A DNA stretch of 64,000 nt from IMG/VR virus record IMGVR_UViG_3300027819_000006; one strand, written 5' to 3'. This stretch comes from a virus (lineage: Duplodnaviria; Caudoviricetes). The notes beneath the pieces are model-generated. The model had not been told where the DNA came from. It saw only the letters and a program-made list of their open reading frames with translations, and did no database searches. Below, one piece after another: positions 452-63,617 of this stretch. Each line of letters starts with the position of its first letter. Positions within the stretch are counted from its first letter, which is position 1. The translations under genes were made by a program, and so were the position numbers.

Positions 452-1360
452 TTATAGTTTTGTTGTTAAAGCTATCTTATCTTGCATCTTATTGTTGACT
501 AATTGTGTTGTGCCTATAAATGTTGTGCTCATCGTTGCATATCTGTCTGCTGATTCTACATAGTCATGAATACTCTTTTTGTTTCTGTAAGCTGCTATGG
601 CTAGACCTGATAGAAATACATCACCAGCACCTATAGAGCATTTGAATTGCTTGGGAACATAGAACTTTTTAGAATATACATTTTTCCTGTCAGTATAAAT
701 AATATTATCAGATGAATTTGTGACTATTAAGTTAAAATTAAACTTTTGAGCTACATATAATATTTTAGCTTCTAGTTTAGAATCTGTATCATATTCTAAA
801 TATCTATTGAAAGTTTTAGCATTAACTTGCAAATATGTGCAGCCATTATAGCAATCATCTAATTCTATGGTATCTACAAAAATCTTACATTTATTCTTAT
901 TTCCTATAGCTACGATCTTCTTTACATCTTCAGCATTTAAAAAGCCTTTTCTATAGTCAGATATCACAATAATATCATTACTACTAATACATTCTGTCAG
1001 CTGTTTATGATTCACTTCAACATTCAGATATAGATCGTCAAATTTGTCGATTCTAAATCTCAACTGATCATTGAAGTAGAATCTATCTCTTTTGATAGTT
1101 GGATGTTTGTTATATTCTATTCTTGGCAGAGCTAAAATTTTAGATTGAGTTGTAGCATTGCAAGATGTGAAAAATAAAATATCAACATTTTCTTCCATCA
1201 AAAGACTTGTAATTGTATTTGCTACATTTCCAGCAGCTCCCAAAGAGAATACTTCTCTTTCTAATTTAGAAGCTTTGTTAATACTTTCATCTATTTCTTT
1301 GTAATCTCGACAAAAGTAGTAGTTGTCCTCTATAACATCTCCAACAATTATAATTTTCAT
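452..1360 (-). CDS. hldE: PfkB-family sugar kinase, HldE/RfaE kinase-domain-like (heptose-7-phosphate kinase); kinase domain only
   Basis: MKIIIVGDVIED start, GAAGNVAN, ISDYRKG, C-terminal GAGD anion-hole motif; start moved to ATG 1360 (ATGA overlap with upstream stop). Confidence 0.75.
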   Translation of the reverse strand: MKIIIVGDVIEDNYYFCRDYKEIDESINKASKLEREVFSLGAAGNVANTITSLLMEENVDILFFTSCNATTQSKILALPRIEYNKHPTIKRDRFYFNDQLRFRIDKFDDLYLNVEVNHKQLTECISSNDIIVISDYRKGFLNAEDVKKIVAIGNKNKCKIFVDTIELDDCYNGCTYLQVNAKTFNRYLEYDTDSKLEAKILYVAQKFNFNLIVTNSSDNIIYTDRKNVYSKKFYVPKQFKCSIGAGDVFLSGLAIAAYRNKKSIHDYVESADRYATMSTTFIGTTQLVNNKMQDKIALTTKL

Positions 1361-1545
1361 GAAGATGCCTGATAGATATAGTTTATTGGAACTGTCATAC
1401 ATTTTATGAGCTCTTTGTGCATGTATAGACAAAATATATTAAAATCTTGATCATTTTTTGCCACATCTATTCCTAGAATATATCTTTTACATTGACATCC
1501 ATTTAAACACAGATCTTCTATAGAGCATGTGCATTTATTATTCAT
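1357..1545 (-). CDS. small protein with N-terminal CxC-x4-L-x3-GCxC motif
   Basis: CTCSIEDLCLNGCQC; overlaps both neighbours as expected for translational coupling. Confidence 0.6.
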   Translation of the reverse strand: MNNKCTCSIEDLCLNGCQCKRYILGIDVAKNDQDFNIFCLYMHKELIKCMTVPINYIYQASS

Positions 1546-2149
1546 TTTTCAAATCCTCTTGAATCCAATGAGCTGCATCTAATAAATCATCACATACAAT
1601 TATAGAATAATTTGGATTTTCTATAACTCTATTTTTATATTCTTCATATGATTCTTTACCAAATCCTGTCAGTACAAGAATATTCTTTTTACATCCTGCA
1701 GCTTTACCAGCTTCAATATCTGTAATAGAATCTCCGATCATATAAGATTTAGATACATCTATATCATGTCTTCTTGCAGCTTCTCTGATAAGTCCAGGTT
1801 TTGGCTTTCTACAATTACATTCAAAATCATAAAGATGATTGCCACAACCTACAGAATGAGGACAGTGAAATACATCTGTGATCTTACCAGAATACCAGCC
1901 TACTTGTTTTCTCATCTTGTTATGAATTTTCAGCAAATCTTGTTCATTAAAATAGCCTTTGCCAATTCCAGCTTGATTTGTAACTACTATAACTTTGAAT
2001 CCAAGTTCGTTTAATAGATATACTGCTCTACCAACATCTGGAAGAAGTTCAAACTGAGAATGATCATTGACATATTTTCCTTTTTCAGCAATATTTACGC
2101 ATCCATCGCGATCTAAAAAACAGCAAGGGCTCAAATTTACTTTTGACAT
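1538..2149 (-). CDS. gmhB: D,D-heptose 1,7-bisphosphate phosphatase (HAD family)
   Basis: FLDRDG motif I, VVTNQAGIG, CPH...CNCRKPKPG, MIGDSITD; start moved to MSKVN. Confidence 0.9.
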   Translation of the reverse strand: MSKVNLSPCCFLDRDGCVNIAEKGKYVNDHSQFELLPDVGRAVYLLNELGFKVIVVTNQAGIGKGYFNEQDLLKIHNKMRKQVGWYSGKITDVFHCPHSVGCGNHLYDFECNCRKPKPGLIREAARRHDIDVSKSYMIGDSITDIEAGKAAGCKKNILVLTGFGKESYEEYKNRVIENPNYSIIVCDDLLDAAHWIQEDLKNE

Positions 2150-2544
2150 TGACAACCTTTCGTCATTAAAGTGTCTATGGAGCAATTACATAATTTAGCT
2201 TCATTAGCTGTAGAAACATTACAAAAAGCATTTTCTAATAGTTTAATATATAGATCATCTAAATTAGCTATGCAAAAATAAGTCTCATCAAATCCTCCTC
2301 TTCTAATGTGATTTCTGAACCACATTCCTGCACCAAAATGAAAATGATTTTGCGTATACCAAAATTTGCCGTATTGATTGTAGTAATCTTCTATAAGTTT
2401 CTGATCAGAAGGATTTGTTTTTTCTCTAAGATATTGTATGCATTTTTCCAGTTTAGGTACTTCAACAGAATTGTATAGTTTTTGTAGTTCTACATCTAAT
2501 TCTTCATCTGTCATAGTCAGTCTTCTCAGTTCAGTGTCTGTCAT
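2137..2544 (-). CDS. hypothetical protein with C-terminal CxC-x4-L-x3-GCxC motif
   Basis: ends CNCSIDTLMTKGCQCQK. Confidence 0.7.
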   Translation of the reverse strand: MTDTELRRLTMTDEELDVELQKLYNSVEVPKLEKCIQYLREKTNPSDQKLIEDYYNQYGKFWYTQNHFHFGAGMWFRNHIRRGGFDETYFCIANLDDLYIKLLENAFCNVSTANEAKLCNCSIDTLMTKGCQCQK

Positions 2545-3107
2545 TCTTTTTTAAATAGAAAGCTTTCTATCACTAATATGTCTAAATCTATTTTTTTGAA
2601 CGTATTTAATGCATCTGAAGGAGTTTCAACTATACTTTCTCCAGGCCCATTAAAAGATGTATTAACTAACAATGGAACTCCAGTCAGATTATAATAAGTC
2701 CACAACAAACTATAAACTTTATAATTCTGTTTTTCATTAACTGTTTGTATTCTTGCTGTATTATCTTTATGTACAATTCCCAACACTTTATTTTTCTGAT
2801 GTTCTAATATTTTAGCAGATAATAACATGTAGGGAGAAGGTCTGTCTATGTCAAACCAATTGCTAACTTCTGATTCTAATATTATTGGAGCGACAGGCCT
2901 GAACATCTCACGACCCTTGATTCTATTCAATCTATCTTTAATATTTGCTTGTCTAGCATCAGCTAAAATTGATCTGAAACCAAGACTGCGCGGGCCGAAC
3001 TCAGATTTATCTACGAACCAACCGCATATTTTGTCATTTGATATTTCTTGAGCAACTACATCACACAAAATACTAAACTCTTTGAATTCTGTAAATTTCA
3101 TTGTCAT
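2541..3107 (-). CDS. carbamoyltransferase C-terminal domain (NodU/CmcH family), stand-alone
   Basis: SEFGPRSLGFRSILAD, REMFRPVAP, HKDNTARIQTV, LVNTSFN. Confidence 0.9.
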   Translation of the reverse strand: MTMKFTEFKEFSILCDVVAQEISNDKICGWFVDKSEFGPRSLGFRSILADARQANIKDRLNRIKGREMFRPVAPIILESEVSNWFDIDRPSPYMLLSAKILEHQKNKVLGIVHKDNTARIQTVNEKQNYKVYSLLWTYYNLTGVPLLVNTSFNGPGESIVETPSDALNTFKKIDLDILVIESFLFKKE

Positions 3108-4222
3108 TTCATAGCTTTCAGAATATCTTCTCTAGTATAACTTTTTCCAAGTGAAGCTAAATTTTCTGGAAATATAGGCAATTCTTTTTCATGTTTAAGC
3201 ACAGAATATACTCCACTAGATATGGCTAGACCTGTGTCATTAGTCCAAGGTGTTACATGAATATCTTTGAATATATTTTTATCTATTAGTTTTCTATTTA
3301 CAAGTATATTCAAGCTACTTCCTCCAGAGAACACAAGATTCTCTGTCTTTAAAGTTGGATGTAAGCATTCAAAAAAATCTACTATAGCATCTTCAAAGCA
3401 TTTCTGTAACCAAGCCGCTATATCTTGAGGCTCATAACAATCTAATTTTTTGAATAAGTCAAAATTGTACATTCTATCATATATTGTAGGAAAATAGAAT
3501 TTATCATTTACAACTTCAAATAATGATTCTACATCAACATTATCAGCATTACCATATCCTGCAAGTCCCATGATCTTGCCAGGAGCAGTTTCCATAAATA
3601 GATATGGATTGGTAAACTTTTTAGATTTCTCCGGTTCTATTCTTGTGTAGATATATCTTGATATGTTATTGTAAACTTGTCCTAAATTAAATACATTTCT
3701 ATTATTTAGACCATTCTTGAAATGGTTTAAGACTGTAATGCCTTTTGCTCGATCATAGTAAGCAAACAATCCTGTTTCATATTCTGTAACTAATTGGTTA
3801 TTAACTATATGATTATAACTACAACCGGCTCCATCTGCTGAGAAAATACTAGATTTCTCAAAAGGTGAAGAATATGCTGAGCCTAAACTGTGTCCTTGAT
3901 GATGATCACAGAATTCTATTTCAGCATTTACAAATTCATTTTTCAGAATTTTAGTAATTTGCTGCTCTGAATTAATATTAGATGTATGTATATTGTGAGT
4001 ATAGCAAACTACGTCTATGTCTTCTTTTTTTAAGCTATTATTTTCTAATATGTAGTCTATAGATAGAGCAGGATATTCTCCAGAGTATTTTTTTCTGTCG
4101 AGTCGCTCCTCCAATATTGAGTTAATTAATTTGCTTTCAACCCATAAAGAAACACCAGATGAGTGAACATGTTTAATTTCAGTATTAAATCCTACTGCTC
4201 CGTATAATCCTAAAATTTTCAT
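3104..4222 (-). CDS. carbamoyltransferase N-terminal (Kae1-like) domain, stand-alone
   Basis: EERLDRKKY, DHHQGH, DGAG, GKIMGLAGYG, FSGGSSLN, NDTGLAI; start set at MKILG (ATGA overlap with upstream HEG stop). Confidence 0.88.
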   Translation of the reverse strand: MKILGLYGAVGFNTEIKHVHSSGVSLWVESKLINSILEERLDRKKYSGEYPALSIDYILENNSLKKEDIDVVCYTHNIHTSNINSEQQITKILKNEFVNAEIEFCDHHQGHSLGSAYSSPFEKSSIFSADGAGCSYNHIVNNQLVTEYETGLFAYYDRAKGITVLNHFKNGLNNRNVFNLGQVYNNISRYIYTRIEPEKSKKFTNPYLFMETAPGKIMGLAGYGNADNVDVESLFEVVNDKFYFPTIYDRMYNFDLFKKLDCYEPQDIAAWLQKCFEDAIVDFFECLHPTLKTENLVFSGGSSLNILVNRKLIDKNIFKDIHVTPWTNDTGLAISSGVYSVLKHEKELPIFPENLASLGKSYTREDILKAMK

Positions 4223-5160
4223 ATGATATGCCACAATTTATCTATTTCACATTCTCTTATTCTAATTAATATGTATCCATTTTTCTTTGCTAATTTATTT
4301 TTATATTCATCATTAATAACTCTTCCTTCTTGAATCTTATTTATGGGACCTTCAGTGTAACATATAGAGCAGCAGTGCCAATAACAACCATCTACTTCTA
4401 TAAGAATATTAAAATCGGGTAAATAAAAATCATATCGTTTCGTGTCTATTATAAATTCTTTTCTGTATTGTATATTTGAGTCTATAAAAATTTTTCTACT
4501 TTTAAATTAGGTTTAGTATTTGTAGTATTGCCAGTGAATTTTATTTTTCCCTGTCTGTGTTGTTCTTTAGTTAATTCACTTAATATTTTTTTAGTTTTAT
4601 CTGAATGTTTGTGCCCATAGTTAGGCTGTTCTTCTGTGCTTAACAGTGTTTGATAAGCTATTCTTTTGCCACTTTTATAGTTTTCATGAGCTGTTATTCC
4701 TGATTTAGTAGAAGCTTGTTTTACTCTATCATCGCTTTCGCTAGTTAATCCTGTATTCCAAGAAACATTTCCTTTTTTTAAATCGTCCTTTTTCACCCCA
4801 CTTTCTGTTACAAGATAATACTGCATCTTCAAATATAAACCTGTATTCTTTACTAGTCATGCTATGAAAATATTTTAAATGTCGGCTTAAATGTTTAAAT
4901 CTTTTTTCTTCTTTATCTTTTAAACATATCTGGCAAATAATATAATCAATATTTTCTATTCCTTCATAAGGTATTACATTTTTAATTCTGCATGGGATAC
5001 ACAAACCGCTTTTATGACTTCTTCTTAAAATATTACTGCATGTTTCAAAGTTTTTACATTTAACTTTTAAACACTGTATACAAGTCCCTCTTTTATTTTT
5101 TATACTTAAAAAATTATGACATGTTTCAAAGTTTTTACATTTTTTATCACTTTTTTGCAT
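4219..5160 (-). pseudogene. frameshifted homing-endonuclease-like gene (Zn-finger, NUMOD3-like, DUF559/Vsr-like PD-(D/E)xK); may be intact if the indels are sequencing errors
   Basis: three frames join at A7 (4773-4779) and A5T5 (4486-4495) runs; last frame gives YDFYLPDFNILIEVDGCYWH...EIDKLWHII*. Confidence 0.8.
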
Positions 5161-5181
5161 CTACTTTCTCCATAAATACAA

Positions 5182-5275
5182 AAGCTATTATCATATGGTA
5201 TAGACAATAAACAATGTTTATGTCTTACGATAATAGCTTCTGATTTATTAGAATTAGTAGTCTATTGTCTATACC
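5182..5275 (-). promoter_or_regulatory. structured HEG leader A (two interleaved inverted repeats)
   Basis: 5182-5192 pairs with 5229-5239 (11 bp perfect); 5197-5209 pairs with 5263-5275 (13 bp perfect). Confidence 0.65.
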
Positions 5276-5278
5276 AAT

Positions 5279-5288
5279 AATAAATATA
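5279..5288 (-). promoter_or_regulatory. putative late promoter (TATATTTATT variant)
   Basis: one-base variant of recurring TATATTTATA motif directly upstream of leader A. Confidence 0.4.
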
Positions 5289-5324
5289 CTTATAGAGAAA
5301 AATAATGCAATTCAGAGATCCTTT

Positions 5325-5387
5325 CTAAGATATTAATTGCTCTGTAGAAAATCCACAGCAGCCATACAAGCTAACAATTTTAGCCAT
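5325..5387 (-). pseudogene. orphan 5' end of carbamoyltransferase N-domain gene
   Basis: MAKIVSLYGCCGFSTEQLIS* resembles MKILGLYGAVGFNTE at 4222; ATG overlaps upstream TAA. Confidence 0.6.
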
Positions 5388-5653
5388 TAAATTCTAACTT
5401 CATAAACATATCTTTGCAATTCTTTTCTTTTCATCAATCTCTTAATTAATTTAGCTACTACTCTTCTATATCGCCATTCAAATAGCCAATCATATCTACT
5501 AATAAGTGATGTTTCGCATATACTGACTTCTTTTCTATTATTCATCGAATCATTATAGAATTTACTAGTATGAAATCTGACCACAACCATCAAATCTAGA
5601 TCTCCAGCATCACCAGAATATAGATATACATCAAACATTGAAAATCCTTTCAC
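5387..5653 (-). CDS. hypothetical protein
   Basis: 88 aa ORF coupled to neighbours. Confidence 0.6.
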   Translation of the reverse strand: MKGFSMFDVYLYSGDAGDLDLMVVVRFHTSKFYNDSMNNRKEVSICETSLISRYDWLFEWRYRRVVAKLIKRLMKRKELQRYVYEVRI

Positions 5654-6249
5654 ATGATTTCATCTACAAGACCTAAAGCCAAAGATTGTTTAGCATCAAA
5701 CCAAGAATCTCTTTTTAGTAACGATATGATTTTATTGACAGGCATTTTGCTATTATTTTTATAGAATGTAGTAATCTGTTTCATACACATTTCTAGCAAA
5801 TTCATATTATCTTTCAGTTCTTCGTAGCGTCCCCAATTAAATCCAACTAACTGATGAACTAGCATAAATGAGCTTGGTGTAATATATCTTTTATTGCAGC
5901 TACAACTAATTATAGTTCCTGCTGAAGCACAAACACCTTCTATTATAGAATAAATTGGAGTTTTGGTTCTTTTAATTTGATCTGCTACACTGAAAGCAGA
6001 TAATAAATCTCCACCAAAGCTTTGAATGTGTAACCAAATTGGAGTATGTTCAAAACTATCCGGTATATCTCTAGATAATCTTTCATTTCTTAAATTAGTG
6101 TCGATTTGCTTAATCTGTTTTATCAAAGATAGACATCTGTCAGAATCTACTCCTGAATAGAAATAGATATGGTTATCTATAGATTCAACAGTTAATTTTG
6201 GAGTTTCTGTAGTTGCAATAGGAGTAGCCTCTGCATCAAACTTAATCAT
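5650..6249 (-). CDS. clpP: ClpP-like serine protease
   Basis: LHIQSFGGD, GVCASAGT (Ser), MLVHQ (His), RDSWFDAKQSLALGLVD. Confidence 0.8.
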   Translation of the reverse strand: MIKFDAEATPIATTETPKLTVESIDNHIYFYSGVDSDRCLSLIKQIKQIDTNLRNERLSRDIPDSFEHTPIWLHIQSFGGDLLSAFSVADQIKRTKTPIYSIIEGVCASAGTIISCSCNKRYITPSSFMLVHQLVGFNWGRYEELKDNMNLLEMCMKQITTFYKNNSKMPVNKIISLLKRDSWFDAKQSLALGLVDEIM

Positions 6250-7148
6250 TGAGATTTTCTTTCTTCTAAATTGATCCAGTTATCTAAGAAATTAATGTGT
6301 CCCATATTGAAAGCTAAATTGAATCTTGGAGGTTCGTAAAGGTATTCTACTCCACAGTTAAAAAACTCTACTCCGAATTTCGGCACATATAATTCATTTA
6401 TTCTGTAATTCGGTTCTAAATGTTTTATTAGATCAGTTCTTACAAAGAATGCATCTGTACCAGCTATAGAGCACCCAACTAGAACATAGTCTTTTTTAAT
6501 AGCAATATCATTCAAAGCTTTCAATGAAGTTCCATAATACGCACTACCATCCCATACTGCATCATCATTTCTTGGCACAGTTAAAGATATATTTGGAGGA
6601 ATATGAGAATTGTATTCTATGACTATGATCTGAGGTTTGAAATTTAAAGCTTCAAATAGATAATAATCATTCCAATCAGTATCTATAGACAGTAGATCTA
6701 AATCTGAATCTTTAGCTTTTAAATATTCTAAAATTACATCATTTATATTATCTACTGTTACTTTTTTATATAGTACATCTAAATTTGCATTAGTAAATTT
6801 ATCTCTAATAAACCTTACTTTCTCTGAGTCAGAATCAAGCCATAATCCTTTCCAGCCTTTAAGATTCAGATATCTAGTATTATTCTCCATTCCATCACCA
6901 CAACCAAATTCTATGAATGTACCTTTGCTGATATCTAATATTTCACATAGTTTTTCTATAATGCCATCTTGATCATTCTGTGAATACACTTTGAAACCAA
7001 ATCTGTTCAGTTTATTAGCATATTCTGATGATTTAATTAGAGATTGCCATAGCTTATATCTTTCAATTTTAGATATTTCTAAAACATTCTTCTCTAAAGA
7101 TATGATTCTTTTAGCTAAATTGTTTAAGTAATCTACATCAAGATTCAT
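6246..7148 (-). CDS. SAM-dependent methyltransferase, FkbM-like
   Basis: YSQNDQDGII, FIEFGCGDG, LSIDTDWND, PQIIVIEYN. Confidence 0.75.
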   Translation of the reverse strand: MNLDVDYLNNLAKRIISLEKNVLEISKIERYKLWQSLIKSSEYANKLNRFGFKVYSQNDQDGIIEKLCEILDISKGTFIEFGCGDGMENNTRYLNLKGWKGLWLDSDSEKVRFIRDKFTNANLDVLYKKVTVDNINDVILEYLKAKDSDLDLLSIDTDWNDYYLFEALNFKPQIIVIEYNSHIPPNISLTVPRNDDAVWDGSAYYGTSLKALNDIAIKKDYVLVGCSIAGTDAFFVRTDLIKHLEPNYRINELYVPKFGVEFFNCGVEYLYEPPRFNLAFNMGHINFLDNWINLEERKSQ

Positions 7149-8953
7149 TTATTTTCCTTTGCTAAAATATAATTATGCAACACTAAAATATCTATCTTGC
7201 TATTAATAAACATTTTAATAGCATCTTCTGGTGTTTCGATTACTGGCTGATCTAAACCATTAAAACTCGTATTTAACAGCATTGGAACTTCTGTCAGTTC
7301 ATAGAATTTCTTGATCAGTTTATAGTATAGTCTATTATTTGTTTCATCAACTGTCTGTATTCTAGATGTATTATCTATATGAATTACTGCAGGCACAGAC
7401 TCTGGTTTTAAGCATTTAATAGAAAACAGCATGAATGGAGATTCTATATTGCAATCAAACCATTCTGCTGCATGTTCTTTCAAGCAAGAGGGTGAAAAAG
7501 GGCGGAAAAATTCTCTATGTTTAATTTCTCTATTAATAAAATCTTTTACAGTTATAATTCTTGGATCAGCTAAAATAGATCTATGTCCTAATGATCGAGG
7601 GCCGGCCTCGCTACCATTTTGAAACCATCCAACAATTTTAGTCTCTGACAAATATTTTGCCACAGTTTCGCATAAAGAATCTTCATCTTTGAACTTAGTT
7701 ATTTCTATTCCTTTTAATTTATCTTTATATGCAGTTAAACTTTCTTTTATATCTTCTTCTGTATAAGTGATTCCACCTTCAAATATTTCTCTATTGCTGT
7801 GTTCTTTCTTTGGTAATTCATTATTAACTAACTCATTCTTCTTATTCTTTGTCAGTTTATCTGATAAAAATAGAGCTGCTCCAATAGATAGACCATCATC
7901 TCCACAAGCTGGTGCAATGAAATAGTTTTTGAACTTACATTCTTTCAATATTCTACCATTCATTGTGCAGTTCAGAAATGTTCCACCTGAGAATGTTATA
8001 TTTTCTGTTACGTTGTGCACTGAATCATAAAGCTGGTTGACAAAATTGATGACAGAATTTTCCAATATCTTCTGAGCAGTTGCAGCTATATTCTTATTTA
8101 GATCATTATTCCAATCTTCTTTTTTCAGCCAGAATGGATCTACTTTGCTACCCTCTTTTTTGAGCTGAGGATAGAATACTCTTGAGTCGGGAATCTTTTT
8201 TATACCAGCATCAAATAGAGTCTCTAAATATAAATCATTTCTTAGAGGTACAGCTTGATCAAATACAAAAGGATATATTAATTTTTCAGCAATTTTAGAA
8301 GGAGTGCCATAAGCAGCAAGAGCCATCACACTGCCAGCTTTAGCCAAACTGGGCGCAAATGAGAGAAAATCGCATATCTGCCCATAATAAGATCCAAAAA
8401 AGAAATCAGATCCTCTTCTTAGTGGTCTGAATATTTTTAGGTCATCATTGAAATAATAGACAGAGTGATTGTTAGCTATATTATCTGAAAAATCACAAGA
8501 GAATGAAACACATTCTTTATATGGAGACATGTAGTAAGAATAGAAAGAATGAGCAAAATGATGATCTACATGAAAAGCTTTTACAGTCTTGTCTCCAATG
8601 TGGAGATTAAAGAGACCTGCGGCTACTTGCCCAACATTATTATAGAAACTGATATAATCTTCAAAACTATACTCTATTCCATTATCATTTGTCAAGCTTA
8701 TTTCATGTTTCGATTTATCAAATAGTTCTTTGCCTTCATAAGAATCAGCAAACCAGTTAACAATAGCAGCTAAATCTATGTCCTCCCACTTTAAATTAGC
8801 TTTTTTGAGAACATATTTTATACATTCTTTGCTGATACCTCTTTCATACTTATTTTTAGTCAATCTCTCATGAGCAATATAAGCTAATAACTTGCCATCT
8901 CTAACAAGACAGCAACTGCCTCCGTGAGAAAAATTTATTCCTAAAACTAGCAA
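7145..8953 (-). CDS. full-length carbamoyltransferase (NodU/CmcH/TobZ family)
   Basis: GINFSHGGS, HERLTKNK, DHHFAH, SGGTFLN, GDDG, EAGPRSLGHRS, FRPFSP, NTSFN; start likely TTG 8953 after AAGGAA. Confidence 0.92.
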   Translation of the reverse strand: MLVLGINFSHGGSCCLVRDGKLLAYIAHERLTKNKYERGISKECIKYVLKKANLKWEDIDLAAIVNWFADSYEGKELFDKSKHEISLTNDNGIEYSFEDYISFYNNVGQVAAGLFNLHIGDKTVKAFHVDHHFAHSFYSYYMSPYKECVSFSCDFSDNIANNHSVYYFNDDLKIFRPLRRGSDFFFGSYYGQICDFLSFAPSLAKAGSVMALAAYGTPSKIAEKLIYPFVFDQAVPLRNDLYLETLFDAGIKKIPDSRVFYPQLKKEGSKVDPFWLKKEDWNNDLNKNIAATAQKILENSVINFVNQLYDSVHNVTENITFSGGTFLNCTMNGRILKECKFKNYFIAPACGDDGLSIGAALFLSDKLTKNKKNELVNNELPKKEHSNREIFEGGITYTEEDIKESLTAYKDKLKGIEITKFKDEDSLCETVAKYLSETKIVGWFQNGSEAGPRSLGHRSILADPRIITVKDFINREIKHREFFRPFSPSCLKEHAAEWFDCNIESPFMLFSIKCLKPESVPAVIHIDNTSRIQTVDETNNRLYYKLIKKFYELTEVPMLLNTSFNGLDQPVIETPEDAIKMFINSKIDILVLHNYILAKENK

Positions 8954-8969
8954 ATATAATTCCTTTCTA

Positions 8970-9311
8970 TCATAAACTAAAACTTTCTCCGCAGCCACAA
9001 GATGATTTAGCATTGGGATTAATTACTGCAAAGCCACTACCATCTAGTCCATCTTTATAGTCTAATACTGATCCCACTAAGAATAACAAACTTTTATTGT
9101 CTATTATAACTTCGACTCCATTTTCTTCTATTTTATTATCATCTTTTTCTATACTTTCTTTGTGCATAAATGACAACTTATAATTTAGTCCGCTACACCC
9201 TCCCCCAACTACAGCTATTCTTAATCGATAGTCGGCAGCCTCTTCATTTCCAAACTCTTTTTCAAGAAGCTCTTTAATTTTACTTGCTGCTTTTTCAGTT
9301 GCAGTTATCAT
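8970..9311 (-). CDS. iscA: A-type Fe-S carrier (IscA/ErpA/HesB family)
   Basis: LRIAVVGGGCSGLNY, NPNAKSSCGCGESF. Confidence 0.93.
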   Translation of the reverse strand: MITATEKAASKIKELLEKEFGNEEAADYRLRIAVVGGGCSGLNYKLSFMHKESIEKDDNKIEENGVEVIIDNKSLLFLVGSVLDYKDGLDGSGFAVINPNAKSSCGCGESFSL

Positions 9312-9520
9312 TTCTTAACTTCTGTTTCAGTTTTCTTTTTAGAATGTTTCTCTTTCAGCACATTGATGAACTTGTCTAGATCATTGCTGAACTCTTTCAA
9401 TCCATCTCTTGCTGATTCTAAATGTGATTCTACTATGTCTGCAGCAAGTTTCTTGTTCTCCATAAGCTTGTTAGCTATAGCTGTTATTTCATCAAGTAGT
9501 TCTGCAAATTTTTCTTTCAT
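9308..9520 (-). CDS. hypothetical coiled-coil protein
   Basis: 70 aa helical ORF, ATGA overlap with iscA. Confidence 0.6.
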   Translation of the reverse strand: MKEKFAELLDEITAIANKLMENKKLAADIVESHLESARDGLKEFSNDLDKFINVLKEKHSKKKTETEVKK

Positions 9521-9537
9521 TTTGATATTCTCCTTTT

Positions 9538-9738
9538 TTAAATTTTGCTACACTGGCATCCAATTGTCATAAGAGTGTTTAAATCGCAAGAACATTTATT
9601 GTTACTGAAATCTATTTTAATTAAAGCTTTAAATATATTAAACATGCAATCCTGACATATATCTAATTCTTCTCTATTGCTATTTATTATTTTCAATCCA
9701 GACATCTGTAAAGCTGTATTGCATCGAGAGCAGATCAT
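9538..9738 (-). CDS. zinc-ribbon protein with C-terminal CxC-x4-L-x3-GCxC motif
   Basis: CSRC...CQDC; CSCDLNTLMTIGCQC. Confidence 0.65.
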   Translation of the reverse strand: MICSRCNTALQMSGLKIINSNREELDICQDCMFNIFKALIKIDFSNNKCSCDLNTLMTIGCQCSKI

Positions 9739-9765
9739 TTAGAATTCTCTTTGCAGATGAGCATG

Positions 9766-9948
9766 TCATTTTCTCCCTGTATTATGTTGTTTCATAGCAC
9801 TCAAGCATTTCATGCAAGCAAACCAAGTAGGTTTATTAAAATAGATTAGATTGATGAAAAATAGATCATTAATTTCCATTTCTTCTTTACAGATTAGACA
9901 TATGAGCTTATGAACATTCTCTACTAAGTTCATATCTACTTTTTGCAA
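9766..9948 (-). CDS. small zinc-ribbon protein
   Basis: CLIC...CMKC. Confidence 0.55.
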   Translation of the reverse strand: MQKVDMNLVENVHKLICLICKEEMEINDLFFINLIYFNKPTWFACMKCLSAMKQHNTGRK

Positions 9949-10418
9949 TTACATCCAAAATTAGTTAGCTGATCAATAGAGCAAGAACATTTTTTGATAC
10001 TACTGCATCCTAAATCTTTACCAGTATTTGGAGCATTAAAATCGAATCTTAAAGTATTCCATTTATCTTCAAGTTTCCAATCTATTTTTTGAAAATATTG
10101 TTTCACGAAATTTTCATTTTTAATGATATTATTAGAAGATTTTTCATCTGTATCTCTCATATGTTTTAATATATCTAAATTGAGAACTGATTCTTTTTCA
10201 CTACAGATTTTAGCTGTAGTGTATGTAGAAGAAGTGTTATTCTGTGTAGCTCTAAATTTAATAGCTTCTTTTAATGTTTCTTTAGCTGTAATACAGCATA
10301 TAGCACACATTTTCATTTCTAAAAATGATTTAATGGCAAATACATCATCTGACTCTTTGTTGCAAATTTCACATTTCCAAGTCGATGTAGATTTAAATTC
10401 TTTTTCTTCAGACATCAA
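9936..10418 (-). CDS. zinc-ribbon protein with C-terminal CxC-x4-L-x3-GCxC motif
   Basis: CEIC...CAIC; CSCSIDQLTNFGCNC. Confidence 0.7.
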   Translation of the reverse strand: MMSEEKEFKSTSTWKCEICNKESDDVFAIKSFLEMKMCAICCITAKETLKEAIKFRATQNNTSSTYTTAKICSEKESVLNLDILKHMRDTDEKSSNNIIKNENFVKQYFQKIDWKLEDKWNTLRFDFNAPNTGKDLGCSSIKKCSCSIDQLTNFGCNCKK

Positions 10419-10495
10419 ATTCCTCCATAAAATATAAAATTTTTAGACACTGTTATTTAGTTCATTTTTAATAAACAGACTGTCAAATTTAAAAT

Positions 10496-10813
10496 TTATT
10501 TTCTTAATAGTGTGTTTTTATTGCACTGACAGCCAGAGTTCAGTAGTGTTTCTAAATTGCATTTGCAGCCAGTAGTATGATTGGCTAAACTGTCAATAGC
10601 ATTATGCATAGCTGTTTCGTAACAAGAGATGCAAAAGTATTTAGCTTCATGAGACAAGAATAGTTCAGATTCTTTGTTGCAGATAGAGCATTTTTGCTTT
10701 TCTTCAGGACAGAATGTATGCCCGACAGTTTTCATAGAGCTGCAATAAGGAATAATAGATGTGATTGTTGGGCTATATGTAACGCAGCCAGGGTTGTTGC
10801 AGATTATGTTCAT
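10496..10813 (-). CDS. zinc-ribbon protein with C-terminal CxC-x4-L-x3-GCxC motif
   Basis: CSIC...CISC; CKCNLETLLNSGCQC. Confidence 0.65.
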   Translation of the reverse strand: MNIICNNPGCVTYSPTITSIIPYCSSMKTVGHTFCPEEKQKCSICNKESELFLSHEAKYFCISCYETAMHNAIDSLANHTTGCKCNLETLLNSGCQCNKNTLLRK

Positions 10814-11974: not shown

Positions 11975-13267
11975 TTACATTATCCTCCAACTTAAATCTA
12001 TCTCATCATCCCATACTCTTATTAATTTATAATTTAATCTTTTGGCTAATTTATTTTTTTGTTTATCTATTTCTATTTTTTCTTTCTGTACAATATTAAT
12101 GGGACCATTTGGATATCTTTCTGGTTTACAATGATAATATGTTCCATCTACTTCTATTAAAATATTATATTTTGGCAAATAGAAATCAAATAACCTTGAT
12201 TTTTTATTTTCCTCATCATATATTCTATATTGATGAATATAGTCTATATTTAAATTTTTTAGGTACTCTTTTAATTGTAATTCACCTTTAGTGTCTTTAA
12301 ATTTTTTATATTTACCATCTATAATATTTTGACAGTGAGTTTTACTCATTTTAGCTTTTGATTCTTCAGAGTGTTTTTGACCCCATCGAGGATTTTTTTC
12401 TCCAATTAAAGTTTTTCTATATTCAGATTGTTTTTTCTTTGTCTCATCAGTAACTATTCTGCCTATTTTACACTTAGACATTTTTTCTAAAGATTCTTCT
12501 GAATATACATTTGTTCTACCATCATGCCATGTTTTACCACCATTTTTATAAAATGTTTTTCTGCTCTCTGATATTTTCTTTTTTGTTTCTTCTGAGTGTT
12601 TATTAGTACCATTTTTTATTTTTGTTTCTTGAGCTTTAATATATGATTCTTTATAGAAAATTTGTTTTTTAGTACAATCACTCAATACATTTCTAAGATT
12701 TTCTGCAATAAAAGTAGAAACATTATATTTTTTTGAATACTCTTCTTTAGTAATACCATGATCAGATAGTAAGTGTTTAGAGTTTATACTTATTTTTATA
12801 TATTTTGTGAAACCTTTATTTTCATTAAAACACTCTTTACATATTACATAGTCTATGTTTTCTTTACCATTTTGATATAAATTTAAAATAAATTTACACT
12901 TTTCATGATCAGTATTTTTGTATATTTTTTTGTTACACACATCGCATATTTTACAATATTCAAAAGATTCAACATTACATGCTTTGCAAATACCTTTCAA
13001 ATTACTTGGACCAAGTCTATTATTACAATTTTCATTTATGCAATATTTAACTCTATTTTTAGTTTGTTTTTTTCTACATTTTTTACAATAGCCACTAAAA
13101 TTGTTACTTTTCAATTTTTCTTTACAGTTTTCTTCTTTACAATACTTTGCGTTTTTAATATCTTTGTCGCTATCTTTCTTTTGACAATCTTTACAAATGC
13201 CATATTTATTCATATTGCCTAATTTCTTTCCACACCCTTCTCTGCTACAATATCTTGCTTCTGCCAT
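11975..13267 (-). CDS. homing-endonuclease-like protein: Cys repeats, NUMOD3 repeats, DUF559/Vsr-like nuclease
   Basis: HSEETKKKIS, HSEESKAKMS; FDFYLPKYNILIEVDGTYYH...IRVWDDEI. Confidence 0.85.
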   Translation of the reverse strand: MAEARYCSREGCGKKLGNMNKYGICKDCQKKDSDKDIKNAKYCKEENCKEKLKSNNFSGYCKKCRKKQTKNRVKYCINENCNNRLGPSNLKGICKACNVESFEYCKICDVCNKKIYKNTDHEKCKFILNLYQNGKENIDYVICKECFNENKGFTKYIKISINSKHLLSDHGITKEEYSKKYNVSTFIAENLRNVLSDCTKKQIFYKESYIKAQETKIKNGTNKHSEETKKKISESRKTFYKNGGKTWHDGRTNVYSEESLEKMSKCKIGRIVTDETKKKQSEYRKTLIGEKNPRWGQKHSEESKAKMSKTHCQNIIDGKYKKFKDTKGELQLKEYLKNLNIDYIHQYRIYDEENKKSRLFDFYLPKYNILIEVDGTYYHCKPERYPNGPINIVQKEKIEIDKQKNKLAKRLNYKLIRVWDDEIDLSWRIM

Positions 13268-59888: not shown

Positions 59889-62800
59889 TTATAATTTAAT
59901 TTCTGTTGATGCTGCTAAAATTTGTTTCACTGCCATTGGACCATCAGTACCCTCATATTCATCTACAGACTTACTACCATCAGCATTCTCAGCATTTGCA
60001 AAGTCTTTCAAACCCTCAATAATATTTTTAGTGAATCTATCATGTTGCATTACATCAGTGATATAGCGGTCAAATACATCAGTCTTCTTTCTATTCTTAA
60101 TTATATCTCTTGCTTTTGCTCTTTTTCTAGATATTATTTCTGAGTTAGAAGTTTTTGCTTTTGACAATCCTACATTAGATTCTTTCTTTTTGCCTACAGA
60201 TCTAACACCTGGAGTTCCTTTTGTACCAGCAGGATCAGCAACTTTCATTGGATTCTTGTCTGTATCTGTGAATGTTTCTCCGTCCTTCTTTTTAGGCTTG
60301 CCTCTAGTAGATTCTTTGTCAGAATCTTCATCTTCAGTAGGTTTTTCTTTATTTTCATCTGAAAAATCTGGCATGTCTGAATCTGCAGATTCTCCATCTT
60401 TCCCTTCAGCACCAGAATCATCAGCAGGTTCTTCTGTCTGCTCTTCTTCTTCTAGTTTGCCATTCTGTTCAATCTGTCCAAGCTCCCATTTCTTCTTAGC
60501 GTCAAGTCTTAACTGCTCATTGATCTCTTCGATTTCATCATCTGTTAGACCAAGTACATGTTTCTGTGTATAAGGTTCGGAAACAAGATGAGAATCACCC
60601 ATTCTAGTAGATATATCAAATCTCTTCTCTACTAGTTCAAGATGCATAAGATCCATCACAGTAGAGGGGTTGGTCAGTTTAAGCTCGAAGTTATAAATAT
60701 CATCTTCATCAAAACCTTTTAAAAATAGATGGATTAGACCAATTTTAGATAGTTCAGATATAACAGCTTTTTGTACACGCTGAATTGTGCGAGCGAATCT
60801 AATGTCTTCTTGAGAATTTGCGATAAAAATTCCAGCATCTATAGCAAAATTATGGAATTCATTATCAACAGTTATACATCCAACATCTACAGTATAGGGC
60901 AATAACTTTACTATTTTAATTTTCCAACTAGATAATTCATATGTTTCAAAATTTATTGGATTAAAATCTATAAATCCTTTTACTGGTTCTGATAAATCAT
61001 AATCTTCTAATTTTATTTTTTTACCTTCAAAAGTAACTAACTCGTGATTTTTAGTACAATCTAAATATTTACCATTTTCGAAGTGAACTCTATATATAGT
61101 AGCATTTCTTTGAGTAATACCTGCCCATTTTATTAGGGATGAAATAATTCTATTTTTATTAGAATCATAAGATATAATTGTATCTTTTAATTCATTTTTA
61201 TTGAATAAGTCAATAATTTCTTTTAGGGTTTTAGTTTTACTATGAGCTAAAACAATTTTAGTATTTAAATCTATACATAGAGTCTGCTTGCCACCTAAAG
61301 ATTCCATATTTTGAAGATAAGCTTTAGGTACTCCGAGCGAAGTAAAGAGCTGGTTCTGGATAAACTCGACATCCGCAATCGCGTCTTGATTTGTCCCTCC
61401 TGGAAGTTGTTCTATAGAAGAACCTCTATCTCCACGAATTGGGATGTAGAAATTTTCTAGAATGGAATTCTTAATTATTATTCCGCTTTCATTTCCAGTA
61501 ATATGTTCATAACAATCTCTACTACCTATAGTTGCAAAATTTCCATATTTTTCTACTGTTATACAACCTACATCTTGTTTTTCTTCTAATAATTCAATTC
61601 TGGTTACTTTGTGATTTAATATTCTATTACCTCTTATAGTATCTATATTACAATCAGTTTTTATTTTAAGAAACTCCGGATATTTATGAGATAGAGTTTT
61701 TATTAATAATTTTATAGTTGTATTATTCAAATCAAATTTTCTTTCAATTTGTCGAAAAGTTATAATATCTTTTTTACTACAATAATTAACTATTTTATTT
61801 ATATCTATTTTATTTTTTAAGAGCCAAATAGATTTGTATTCTGTAAATCCAGAATATCCTAAAGTTTTAAATAGACTACTAAATCTTCCTCTACCCAATT
61901 TATCTTTAAAACCATTATTGAATGTAATATTTTTATCTATTAAATAATTTGTAAAATCTTTGTTTTCATTTATCTGTTTCATAGCTTCATGAGCTTTTAT
62001 ATTAACAGTAGAATTATCTAATATAGTATCAATAAATTTTATAAATATATTTTCATCTATAACTAATGACAGCAATTCACTTACATTTTTATAGTGTTTA
62101 TTTTTTTTATCTTTGTCATTCCAGTGATTAGTAAAATGATATAATTTTCCTTCTTTCCAACTTTTTGTCATTCTATTTTTAGAATTTTCTCTACCAATCT
62201 CTGATTTATTATATTCTAAAATTGCATCACCATGAAGTTTTTGATGATCGTGCCAACTCATTACTTGCAGATTGTCTGGATTATTGTTTCTTTTATTATT
62301 TTTGTCTTTTAGAAAATTTTTGTGATGAACAACTGCTCTTCTATTTTTTTCTACTTTGCAATAGTCATCTTGAAATAGTTTACCAGCAACAATTTTATGT
62401 GTATAATCAAATGCATTTGTATTTGGGTCATAAATCATTTCATATCCATTTGTAGATAAATTTTTATATAATGGCATCAAACTATCATTCTCTTTTAAGT
62501 GTTGAGCTTCAATATATTCTCCGATTCTTAATAAAAACTTATGATCTAAAGTTGTATCTATGTAAGTATTATTGTCTAAATGAATACGTATTATTTGCTC
62601 ATTTTTTCTTGTCATTTTAGCATTTATTACTCTTCCTGGAACTATAGCATTATTGTTTTCTCTATCTATCGAATAAACCCATTGATTTTTTTTGCCATTA
62701 TTTCTTTCATTTATTATTTCTTCTAAAGTAAGAGTTCTTCCATCTAATAATTGAACTAAGTTGTTTGCCAGTATACAAGTTGGATTGTATCTCATATCTA

Positions 62801-63617
62801 ACCCTCCAGTACTTTCTGTCACTAGCGGTGTCCTTAACATTTTGTCTCTTACATTGTTCATGTAAGAATCCACATCTTTTGGAGGAATATTTCCAACATC
62901 AACTTTAAACACTAATCTTTCTGGAGCTCTCGATATCCTATAAATTAACATTGCATCAATTGCAAGTATTAGCTGCTTCCAAGCTCTTCTACCAGAATCA
63001 AGAATTGATCTACCATAGGGCAAAAACCTGTCATCTCCAAGAAGTCTAAAATGAGCAATTTGATAAGGCTCGAATGCTTGGTTTGACTGAGTCATCCATC
63101 TAAATCTAACAGATGCAGGATCACCATCGTAGCCTTCTTCTCTCGACATTTCCAACAATGGTAAAGGAATGGCTCCTAAAACTCCATATTTATTTTCTAT
63201 ATCTAATAATGTAAAAACGTCTCCATATTTTACGAGGTTCCTGACCCACAACCATAAGTTAAAATCTATATCTAGTATGTCAAAGTATAATTCTTCTAAA
63301 GTCTTAACTATAGTTTCTTCTTCCGATCTAATATCTAGTATTTTACCTTCATAATTATATGTGGTCGAATCATCCGCATAAATATTACAAGCCGTACTAA
63401 TCTCTGGACTCTGATCCATCTGTTCATAGTCTCTTACTCTTTCAGTTCTTTCAGCTCCACCAGCCAATGCTTGCAAATACAGAGAACTAGCCGATTTTTG
63501 GAAACTGTCATACGGGCGTCTTCCACCCGCACGATTTGCAGGAGAGTCAGTTGGAATTTTTTCTGAAGCTCTCCTCCCGCGAAGTATGCGCTTGAGCAAG
63601 CTGATCTTATCGGCCAT
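59889..63617 (-). CDS. gp20: portal vertex protein (T4 gp20-like) with two inteins and acidic C-tail; predicted spliced length 651 aa
   Basis: YGRSIL...WKQL....DAMLIYRISRAPERLVFKVDVGNIP; FYIP.RG....I..LPGG; LF..LGVPK; EDIRFARTIQRVQ. Confidence 0.95.
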   Translation of the reverse strand: MADKISLLKRILRGRRASEKIPTDSPANRAGGRRPYDSFQKSASSLYLQALAGGAERTERVRDYEQMDQSPEISTACNIYADDSTTYNYEGKILDIRSEEETIVKTLEELYFDILDIDFNLWLWVRNLVKYGDVFTLLDIENKYGVLGAIPLPLLEMSREEGYDGDPASVRFRWMTQSNQAFEPYQIAHFRLLGDDRFLPYGRSILDSGRRAWKQLILAIDAMLIYRISRAPERLVFKVDVGNIPPKDVDSYMNNVRDKMLRTPLVTESTGGLDMRYNPTCILANNLVQLLDGRTLTLEEIINERNNGKKNQWVYSIDRENNNAIVPGRVINAKMTRKNEQIIRIHLDNNTYIDTTLDHKFLLRIGEYIEAQHLKENDSLMPLYKNLSTNGYEMIYDPNTNAFDYTHKIVAGKLFQDDYCKVEKNRRAVVHHKNFLKDKNNKRNNNPDNLQVMSWHDHQKLHGDAILEYNKSEIGRENSKNRMTKSWKEGKLYHFTNHWNDKDKKNKHYKNVSELLSLVIDENIFIKFIDTILDNSTVNIKAHEAMKQINENKDFTNYLIDKNITFNNGFKDKLGRGRFSSLFKTLGYSGFTEYKSIWLLKNKIDINKIVNYCSKKDIITFRQIERKFDLNNTTIKLLIKTLSHKYPEFLKIKTDCNIDTIRGNRILNHKVTRIELLEEKQDVGCITVEKYGNFATIGSRDCYEHITGNESGIIIKNSILENFYIPIRGDRGSSIEQLPGGTNQDAIADVEFIQNQLFTSLGVPKAYLQNMESLGGKQTLCIDLNTKIVLAHSKTKTLKEIIDLFNKNELKDTIISYDSNKNRIISSLIKWAGITQRNATIYRVHFENGKYLDCTKNHELVTFEGKKIKLEDYDLSEPVKGFIDFNPINFETYELSSWKIKIVKLLPYTVDVGCITVDNEFHNFAIDAGIFIANSQEDIRFARTIQRVQKAVISELSKIGLIHLFLKGFDEDDIYNFELKLTNPSTVMDLMHLELVEKRFDISTRMGDSHLVSEPYTQKHVLGLTDDEIEEINEQLRLDAKKKWELGQIEQNGKLEEEEQTEEPADDSGAEGKDGESADSDMPDFSDENKEKPTEDEDSDKESTRGKPKKKDGETFTDTDKNPMKVADPAGTKGTPGVRSVGKKKESNVGLSKAKTSNSEIISRKRAKARDIIKNRKKTDVFDRYITDVMQHDRFTKNIIEGLKDFANAENADGSKSVDEYEGTDGPMAVKQILAASTEIKL
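60816..61277 (-). mobile_element. mini-intein (154 aa) in portal
   Basis: TL|CIDLNT...CTKNHEL...DVGCITV...HNFAI..GIFIAN|SQ. Confidence 0.92.
61467..62777 (-). mobile_element. intein (437 aa) with HNH endonuclease in portal
   Basis: PT|CILANN...TTLDHKF; VVHHKN...NNNPDNL; DVGCITV...NF...IIKN|SI. Confidence 0.92.

Follow-up and report, generated by a model that had tools for sequence, protein, structure and literature searches.

The first 12 kb of a 64,000-nucleotide stretch of viral DNA (IMG/VR record IMGVR_UViG_3300027819_000006; Duplodnaviria, Caudoviricetes), hereafter called the window, encode five small proteins that share a 15-residue tag with the pattern C.C[SDN][IL]..L...GC.C. The window belongs to a contig of 271,885 bp whose source is an uncultured groundwater phage (jumbo phage). 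Analysis of the five copies and of their counterparts in other phages established that the tag is a real, conserved, autonomous, movable, and cytoplasmic four-cysteine module, which sits, usually behind a flexible linker, at the very C-terminal end of over 100 unrelated small soluble phage proteins. The family appears undescribed. Its function is best captured by a combined reading to which we give an even chance, namely that the tag is a predicted Zn(Cys)4 knuckle serving as a portable docking or oligomerization tag.

A six-frame regular-expression scan of the window with this pattern gave exactly 5 matches, all on the minus strand, and a looser pattern (C.C.{8}GC.C) applied to the six-frame translation found the same five copies and no others. 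When the window sequence was shuffled 100 times, 0 matches were obtained. Moreover, a hidden Markov model (HMM) of the wider tag family, built without the window rows, recovered exactly the five copies among 1607 six-frame segments with E-values of 5.4e-10 to 4.9e-5, the next-best window segment reaching E=0.21. The first copy (CTCSIEDLCLNGCQC; 1489-1533, HMM E=3.7e-5) is the sole N-terminal one and occupies residues 5-19 of a 62-residue open reading frame (ORF; 1357-1545, minus strand). The second (CNCSIDTLMTKGCQC; 2146-2190, E=5.4e-10) lies 2 residues before the C-terminus of a 135-residue ORF (2137-2544, minus strand), and the third (CSCDLNTLMTIGCQC; 9550-9594, E=1.9e-9) 3 residues before the C-terminus of a 66-residue ORF (9538-9738, minus strand). 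The fourth (CSCSIDQLTNFGCNC; 9945-9989, E=4.9e-5) is found 2 residues before the end of a 160-residue ORF (9936-10418, minus strand; 159 residues according to the external gene caller) and the fifth (CKCNLETLLNSGCQC; 10523-10567, E=3.5e-6) 8 residues before the end of a 105-residue ORF (10496-10813, minus strand). The five positions and the division into four C-terminal copies and one N-terminal copy thus agree with the preliminary description of this DNA.

Outside gene callers independently predicted the 62-, 105-, 135-, and 159/160-residue genes and, separately, the 66-residue gene. The ATG of the 62-residue ORF overlaps the stop codon of a HAD/GmhB-like gene, its own stop codon overlaps the ATG of a PfkB-type kinase gene, and a ribosome-binding site (GAGGA) is situated 8 nt upstream of its ATG. 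For the 135-residue protein only the protein itself was retrieved among 5.8 billion proteins and no relatives were found in IMG/VR; the similarity of its N-terminal part to DUF6794 is weak (21.6 bits, under the cut-off). The five 45-nt stretches that encode the tags are identical to each other at only 25-30 of the 45 nucleotides (56-67%), and 3-6 identical residues per tag pair are encoded by different codons. The repeat is therefore maintained at the protein level, as had been proposed from its fixed spacing and diverged codons.

The tag extends far beyond this phage. Degenerate DNA patterns that were back-translated from the motif and used to scan IMG/VR delivered about 25 distinct true tags from phage contigs with guanine-cytosine (GC) contents of 32-68%, nearly all of them C-terminal in unrelated ORFs of 49-300 amino acids. 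A 30-row alignment of these tags gave a profile (A2) that scores its own members at 34-55 bits. In an exhaustive hmmsearch against 1.84 billion cluster representatives, this profile matched 740 protein clusters (50% identity) at E<=1e-3, nearly all of which are uncultured-phage proteins of 45-220 amino acids whose source names read only "hypothetical protein". The family size of 740 is a lower bound because divergent versions, such as those of the window, fall under the library-wide threshold. An orthologue of the 66-residue window protein from another sample (P0160) is 73% identical overall and 14/15 identical in the tag, which is thus conserved between orthologues.

The family consensus is (P)KK-CTCDIMxLMxxGCKCGG[IVK]-end. 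Column frequencies and the statistics on tails, linkers, membrane segments, and N-terminal parts given below refer to the best 150 of the 740 proteins, which carry 154 tags. Six positions (C1, C3, L8, G12, C13, and C15) are 100% conserved, and the four cysteines, Leu8, Gly12, and the fixed spacing are invariant in about 170 family tags and present in all five window copies. Met9 (93%) and Gly16 (96%) are nearly as constant, as is I, M, L, or F at position 5 (96%), while position 4 is D, S, N, E, or T in 90% and position 14 is K or Q in 88%; K or H directly precedes C1. Exactly three residues follow the tag in 94 of the 154 cases (GG plus I, V, or K), and a second tail type, G-[QA]-[FMI]-x-R-E-[QR], is 8-12 residues long.

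The tagged proteins have a median length of 108 amino acids, and BLAST sorted the parts that precede the tag in the 150 proteins into 127 unrelated components, which bears out the earlier proposal of a portable module. In the 15 residues before the tag, P, K, and E are enriched about 2-fold and hydrophobic and aromatic residues are depleted, as would be expected of a flexible linker. No membrane-like segment was detected in 149 of the 150 proteins. Four metagenomic proteins (P0002, P0076, P0080, and P0030) carry two tandem tags that are 12-14 residues apart. P0002 (692 amino acids) and P0076 (634 amino acids) contain a KOW motif and belong to the small number of tagged proteins in which a domain can be recognized at all. 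A tag was also observed in an unusual arrangement: CDCEINHLMANGCTC-GAMED-stop lies in a 36-codon open frame that lacks a good start codon (L025:11600-11727; the same in L015:1769-1837). Just upstream of the L025 frame, an ATG-started 16-codon frame contains the heptamer A_AAT_TTA, at which a -1 slip would enter the tag frame exactly. This arrangement might reflect a mini-protein made by frameshifting, an indel introduced by sequencing, or a gene that has decayed.

The movable nature of the tag is also visible within the window. The 66-, 105-, and 160-residue proteins and an untagged 60-residue ORF (9766-9948, minus strand) have a common N-terminal module, CxxC-x(18-24)-CxxC followed by a helix, and are on this basis considered paralogues with a predicted zinc-ribbon-like C4 head. 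The head covers residues 1-44 of the 66-residue protein, in which head and helix precede the tag, residues 34-82 of the 105-residue protein, and residues 11-58 of the 160-residue ORF, in which a long linker separates it from the tag. In the 105-residue protein, 21 codons containing the tag separate H-T-T-G from R-K-stop. The untagged paralogue ends in H-N-T-G-R-K-stop and lacks exactly that block. The presence or absence of the 21-codon block between conserved flanks means that the tag was precisely inserted or deleted, i.e., that it behaves as a module. The preliminary description had called the five carriers otherwise different proteins, which is an overstatement, three of them being paralogues.

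The window copies differ from the rest of the family in several respects and can be classified by their sequences as a divergent sub-type. Position 16 is K, Q, S, K, or N in the five tags and never Gly; Gly16 is thus missing in all five as well as in the orthologue P0160, compared with about 5% of other tags. Met9 is present in just two of the five copies. The extreme C-terminal position is kept in 4/5 copies (2-8 residues from the end), the exception being the 62-residue protein. Homogenization within the genome or recent copying was considered as an origin and rejected, as the window tags agree with each other at 2.3 of 10 variable positions and typical family pairs at 3.85. Being no closer to each other than to outside tags, they are therefore old copies rather than recent conversions. 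That all of them have lost Gly16 suggests either that they descend from a single ancestral tag of this lineage or that they adapted together to a common partner.

To obtain a structural model, the 66-residue window protein was submitted to AlphaFold2 together with 145 aligned tags. A ten-residue block over the tag averages a predicted local distance difference test score (pLDDT) of about 88, while the head is modeled with low confidence. A six-residue helix is placed at tag positions 5-10 between the two cysteine pairs, and the tag is thus predicted with confidence to form a compact mini-fold of a CxC knuckle, a six-residue helix, and a GCxC knuckle. The same short helix was predicted in both tags of a tandem-tag protein. 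Rubredoxin-type metal knuckles are built on a Gly-flanked CPxCG. By analogy, Gly12 and Gly16 would fit a GCxCG knuckle of this kind, and established structural knowledge suggests that the polar residue at position 4 would fit a helix N-cap. A metal-binding four-cysteine module would therefore be the most economical reading of the invariant cysteines, the GCxCG string, and the AlphaFold fold. An antiparallel zinc-clasp dimer, in which the cysteine pairs are too far apart to hold one metal within a chain, was also considered as a possibility, though an unsupported one: the predicted helix of only six residues would allow an intramolecular site, and tandem tags were not packed together.

In the mechanism that we propose, the two cysteine pairs, one at each end of the six-residue helix, would together hold a single metal ion (most likely Zn2+) and so yield a knuckle that folds by itself and is about 20 residues long. 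A fold of this size could hardly bury the invariant hydrophobic face (Ile5, Leu8, and Met9), which would therefore probably act as a contact surface. A hydrophobic face on a flexible tether at the chain end makes the tag most likely a plug for protein-protein contact, through which unrelated accessory proteins would dock onto one common partner. The candidate partner would be another tag, which amounts to oligomerization, or a conserved host or phage hub.

A purely structural role has to be weighed against docking, namely that the tag is a metal-clamped C-terminal cap that folds tiny proteins or shields their C-termini from host proteases and has no partner at all. We consider this unlikely, though it is a serious alternative. 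In favor of a cap, the module is tiny and self-contained, AlphaFold gives it a confident fold, and its conserved hydrophobic residues might form a mini-core as they do in classical zinc fingers; many phages contain a single tagged protein, and no co-occurring receptor gene was found. However, a floppy tether such as the P/K/E-rich linker between tag and body cannot stabilize the fold of the body. Furthermore, residues that are not ligands are strongly conserved across phages of 32-68% GC (Met9 93%, Gly16 96%), and the change at position 16 is common to all five copies in one genome.

Several observations weigh against the docking or oligomerization tag. The putative metal site is deduced solely from the invariant cysteines and from an AlphaFold model. 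Ile, Leu, and Met are perhaps just the mini-core of the knuckle, which would reduce the tag to a stabilizing cap, and Met9 is replaced in three of the five window copies and hence is non-essential here. Self-pairing is unsupported, since no confident packing was predicted between the tandem tags (predicted template modeling score, pTM, 0.23). Phage records other than that of the window contain one to four tags each and most phages only 1-2, and no gene recurs beside the tags as a possible receptor in about 30 loci and three further contexts.

The view that the motif belongs to no named family, already expressed in the preliminary description, was supported by all database searches. In none of the proteins scanned is the tag covered by a Pfam, PHROG, or NCBIfam model; for Pfam, this holds for the 5 window proteins, 9 IMG/VR proteins, and 150 family members and includes the CDGSH/NEET, SWIM, and metallothionein families. 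A sequence profile search of the PDB with the tag gave 0 matches at E<=10, and a Foldseek search of the PDB with the predicted model returned no match. The clusters delivered by a feature search of the ESM Atlas were all unnamed and scored no better than chance. When single proteins were used as queries in word-indexed homologue searches, only the query itself or near-identical sequences came up, and an alignment query added a few family members and the orthologue P0160. A literature search with motif notations and sequence strings found no relevant match. The GCKCG strings that do occur in the literature are those of metallothioneins and not the tag, and the CapR "CxxC...CxC" domain is likewise different from it.

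Metallothioneins nevertheless bring up the idea that the tag is a soft-metal thiolate site for Cu(I) or Cd of the metallothionein or copper-chaperone type, or else a substrate motif for the post-translational modification of cysteine. CxC pairs and GCKCG strings are found in metallothioneins, and the tag has a conserved Met beside a cysteine. Yet each tag holds just four cysteines, no metallothionein family matched it, and no modifying-enzyme or metal-transport gene is consistently near the tags, which together make this the least probable of the readings considered here.

Two other readings arise from the genes around the window copies. The phage has a GC content of about 30%, encodes a T4-type major capsid protein (PF07068) and a portal protein in the window, and carries its long ORFs all on the minus strand. 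The T4-type capsid family gave no match in five other tagged phages, but the positive control of that search was also without a match. The accessory region, i.e., the first 12 kb of the window, encodes the PfkB-type kinase, the HAD/GmhB-like phosphatase, two carbamoyltransferases (one of them split), a ClpP-like protease, an IscA-type Fe-S carrier, a weak GT9-like protein, and homing-endonuclease-like genes. Within 9 kb of this region, five genes have come to carry the tag as it spread in the phage. The earlier impression that the copies are confined to this cluster holds for the part that was searched, as there is no tag beyond it within the 64-kb window and the 7.4 kb past its start.

The IscA-type (A-type Fe-S carrier) gene (8970-9311, minus strand; PF01521, E=1.7e-19) adjoins the tagged genes, and the preliminary description had suggested that it might load the tag. 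The corresponding alternative is that the tag is an iron-sulfur ligand, for example of a [2Fe-2S] cluster that is held by two CxC pairs and might bridge two chains. A cluster of this type is bound in NEET proteins by a CxC pair together with a third ligand 8 residues further on. Besides the IscA-type gene among the tagged genes, a 99-residue PF01883 (FeS_assembly_P / DUF59) protein is encoded on the opposite strand about 5 kb past the first base of the window (L053:16071-16370). The phage therefore carries two Fe-S assembly factors. Across the family, the tie to IscA is not supported: PF01521 is missing from 5/5 near-complete tagged phage genomes in a search whose control was positive in 10/14 known genomes. 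Furthermore, no Pfam Fe-S or CDGSH family was found among the 150 members, and the spacing of the tag is unlike any canonical Fe-S signature. We thus judge an iron-sulfur site to be rather improbable, somewhat more so than the structural cap.

A tie to ClpP had likewise been suggested. In this reading, the tag would be a degron or handle that delivers proteins to ClpXP or the phage ClpP, and the C4 heads would mimic the ClpX zinc-binding domain. The ClpP-like serine protease gene (5650-6249, minus strand; PF00574, E=6.9e-24) is in the same region, 3.3 kb from the C4-head genes, and degrons are typically C-terminal. The C4 heads (not the tag) have the CxxC-x(~20)-CxxC pattern followed by a helix in common with the ClpX N-terminal zinc-binding domain (PF06689). 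They aligned with two ClpX N-termini at an hhalign probability of 60% over 34 columns, and the head of the 160-residue protein weakly matched the NCBIfam ClpX N-terminus (E=0.49), but any C4 ribbon with similar spacing might score equally. PF06689 itself had no match at E<=1 in the window proteins, the heads stay below every Pfam threshold, and a PDB profile search did not return ClpX. In addition, 2/5 near-complete tagged phages are without ClpP; where it is present (3/5), it is far from the tags, at about 250 kb in the two genomes with comparable positions. A folded metal knuckle would also be an improbable entry point for an unfoldase. The proposed link to ClpP was thus not confirmed, and a Clp signal is very unlikely.

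Further features of this phage were recorded. The 99-residue PF01883 gene is flanked by tail sheath and tail tube genes. The portal gene (59889-63617, minus strand; 1242 amino acids) has an HNH-endonuclease-like insert (phrog_7545) at residues 388-475, which suggests an intein or an inserted mobile element. Two homing-endonuclease-like proteins (4741-5160 and 11975-13267, both minus strand) contain repeated Cys-rich units (C-x2-C ... C-x-x-C) with weak ROS/MucR-like matches. These units, which have no relation to the tag, recall the CapR/DUF723 DNA-binding repeats that have been described in homing endonuclease genes of the T5orf172 type (PMC10448857). Between the ClpP and carbamoyltransferase genes, a 300-residue protein (6246-7148) shows weak matches to TehB and S-adenosylmethionine methyltransferases. 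Its homologues adjoin tagged genes in two other low-GC jumbo-phage fragments (L004:3049-4017; L005), and these contigs are therefore tied to the lineage of this phage.

The tag is almost absent from cellular genomes and cultured phages and is restricted to phages. A strict DNA pattern that includes Met9 and Gly16 was searched in one genome each of 185,579 bacterial and archaeal species and found three loci; about 2 would be expected by chance as estimated from the information content of the pattern. Only one of these three loci, on a 27.9-kb contig in an NC10 metagenome-assembled genome, looks genuine. When two tag variants were compared with 50,697 GenBank phage records by tblastn, only LR756511.1 matched, the record of an uncultured huge phage of 595 kb in which three or four tag copies are solid. 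A related low-GC fragment (G012) contains four tags within 12 kb, again beside sugar-nucleotide genes.

Small metal-binding modules are a familiar theme, and small phage proteins often use zinc-knuckle or zinc-ribbon modules. With rubredoxin-type zinc knuckles and zinc ribbons, the tag has in common four cysteines in two pairs, a tiny autonomous fold that is predicted to be metal-stabilized, and a Gly-flanked second pair. It differs from them in that its pairs are CxC instead of CxxC and flank a six-residue helix instead of beta hairpins, and it matches no Pfam or PDB zinc-ribbon family in sequence or profile. CxC zinc sites occur in the C-terminal redox switch of Hsp33 (CxC...CxxC) and in the N-terminal Zn site of the RNA polymerase beta-prime subunit (CxC-x12-CxxC). 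In the CD4/CD8-Lck zinc clasp, a CxC and a CxxC pair on two chains come together, and short motifs act as metal-dependent docking tails. All three use CxC as a Zn ligand pair, as is predicted for the tag, but none is known to have two CxC pairs 9 residues apart, and no homology to them was detected in Pfam or the PDB. Dockerin modules, the C-terminal tail of SSB, and the targeting helices of MinD and FtsA are comparable in another way, being short conserved C-terminal modules behind a flexible linker that are attached to many unrelated proteins, several per genome. These, however, have known receptors and no Cys4 site, while docking by the tag is deduced. Small Cys4 metal modules that serve as fusion tags are thus a familiar kind of element; the CxC-helix-GCxC family, its size, its restriction to phages, and its tail-tag architecture appear to be new.

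A broader proposal can be made, which we regard as tentative and as having clearly less than an even chance. The tag may be a phage-wide "address label", a zinc-stabilized docking peptide that directs hundreds of unrelated accessory proteins of uncultured and often jumbo phages to one conserved target. A hub present in all bacteria might serve as this target, or else the tag itself, in which case mixed complexes would be assembled. Recruitment would then follow a new modular system, whose logic would be comparable to dockerin-cohesin or SSB-tail hubs, yet specific to viruses.

In large uncultured phages, the majority of genes are small and lack annotation, and here a 20-residue module that is found with a simple profile marks at least 740 protein clusters and so offers a way into this "dark matter". 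Since the tag is nearly absent from cellular genomes and cultured phages, it can help to mark certain lineages of uncultured phages, and the model phages now in use cannot reveal its biology. As a minimal metal-dependent handle, the tag could also be employed for fusion or recruitment. If a common docking partner does exist, its identification would give a site of action for hundreds of uncharacterized phage proteins.

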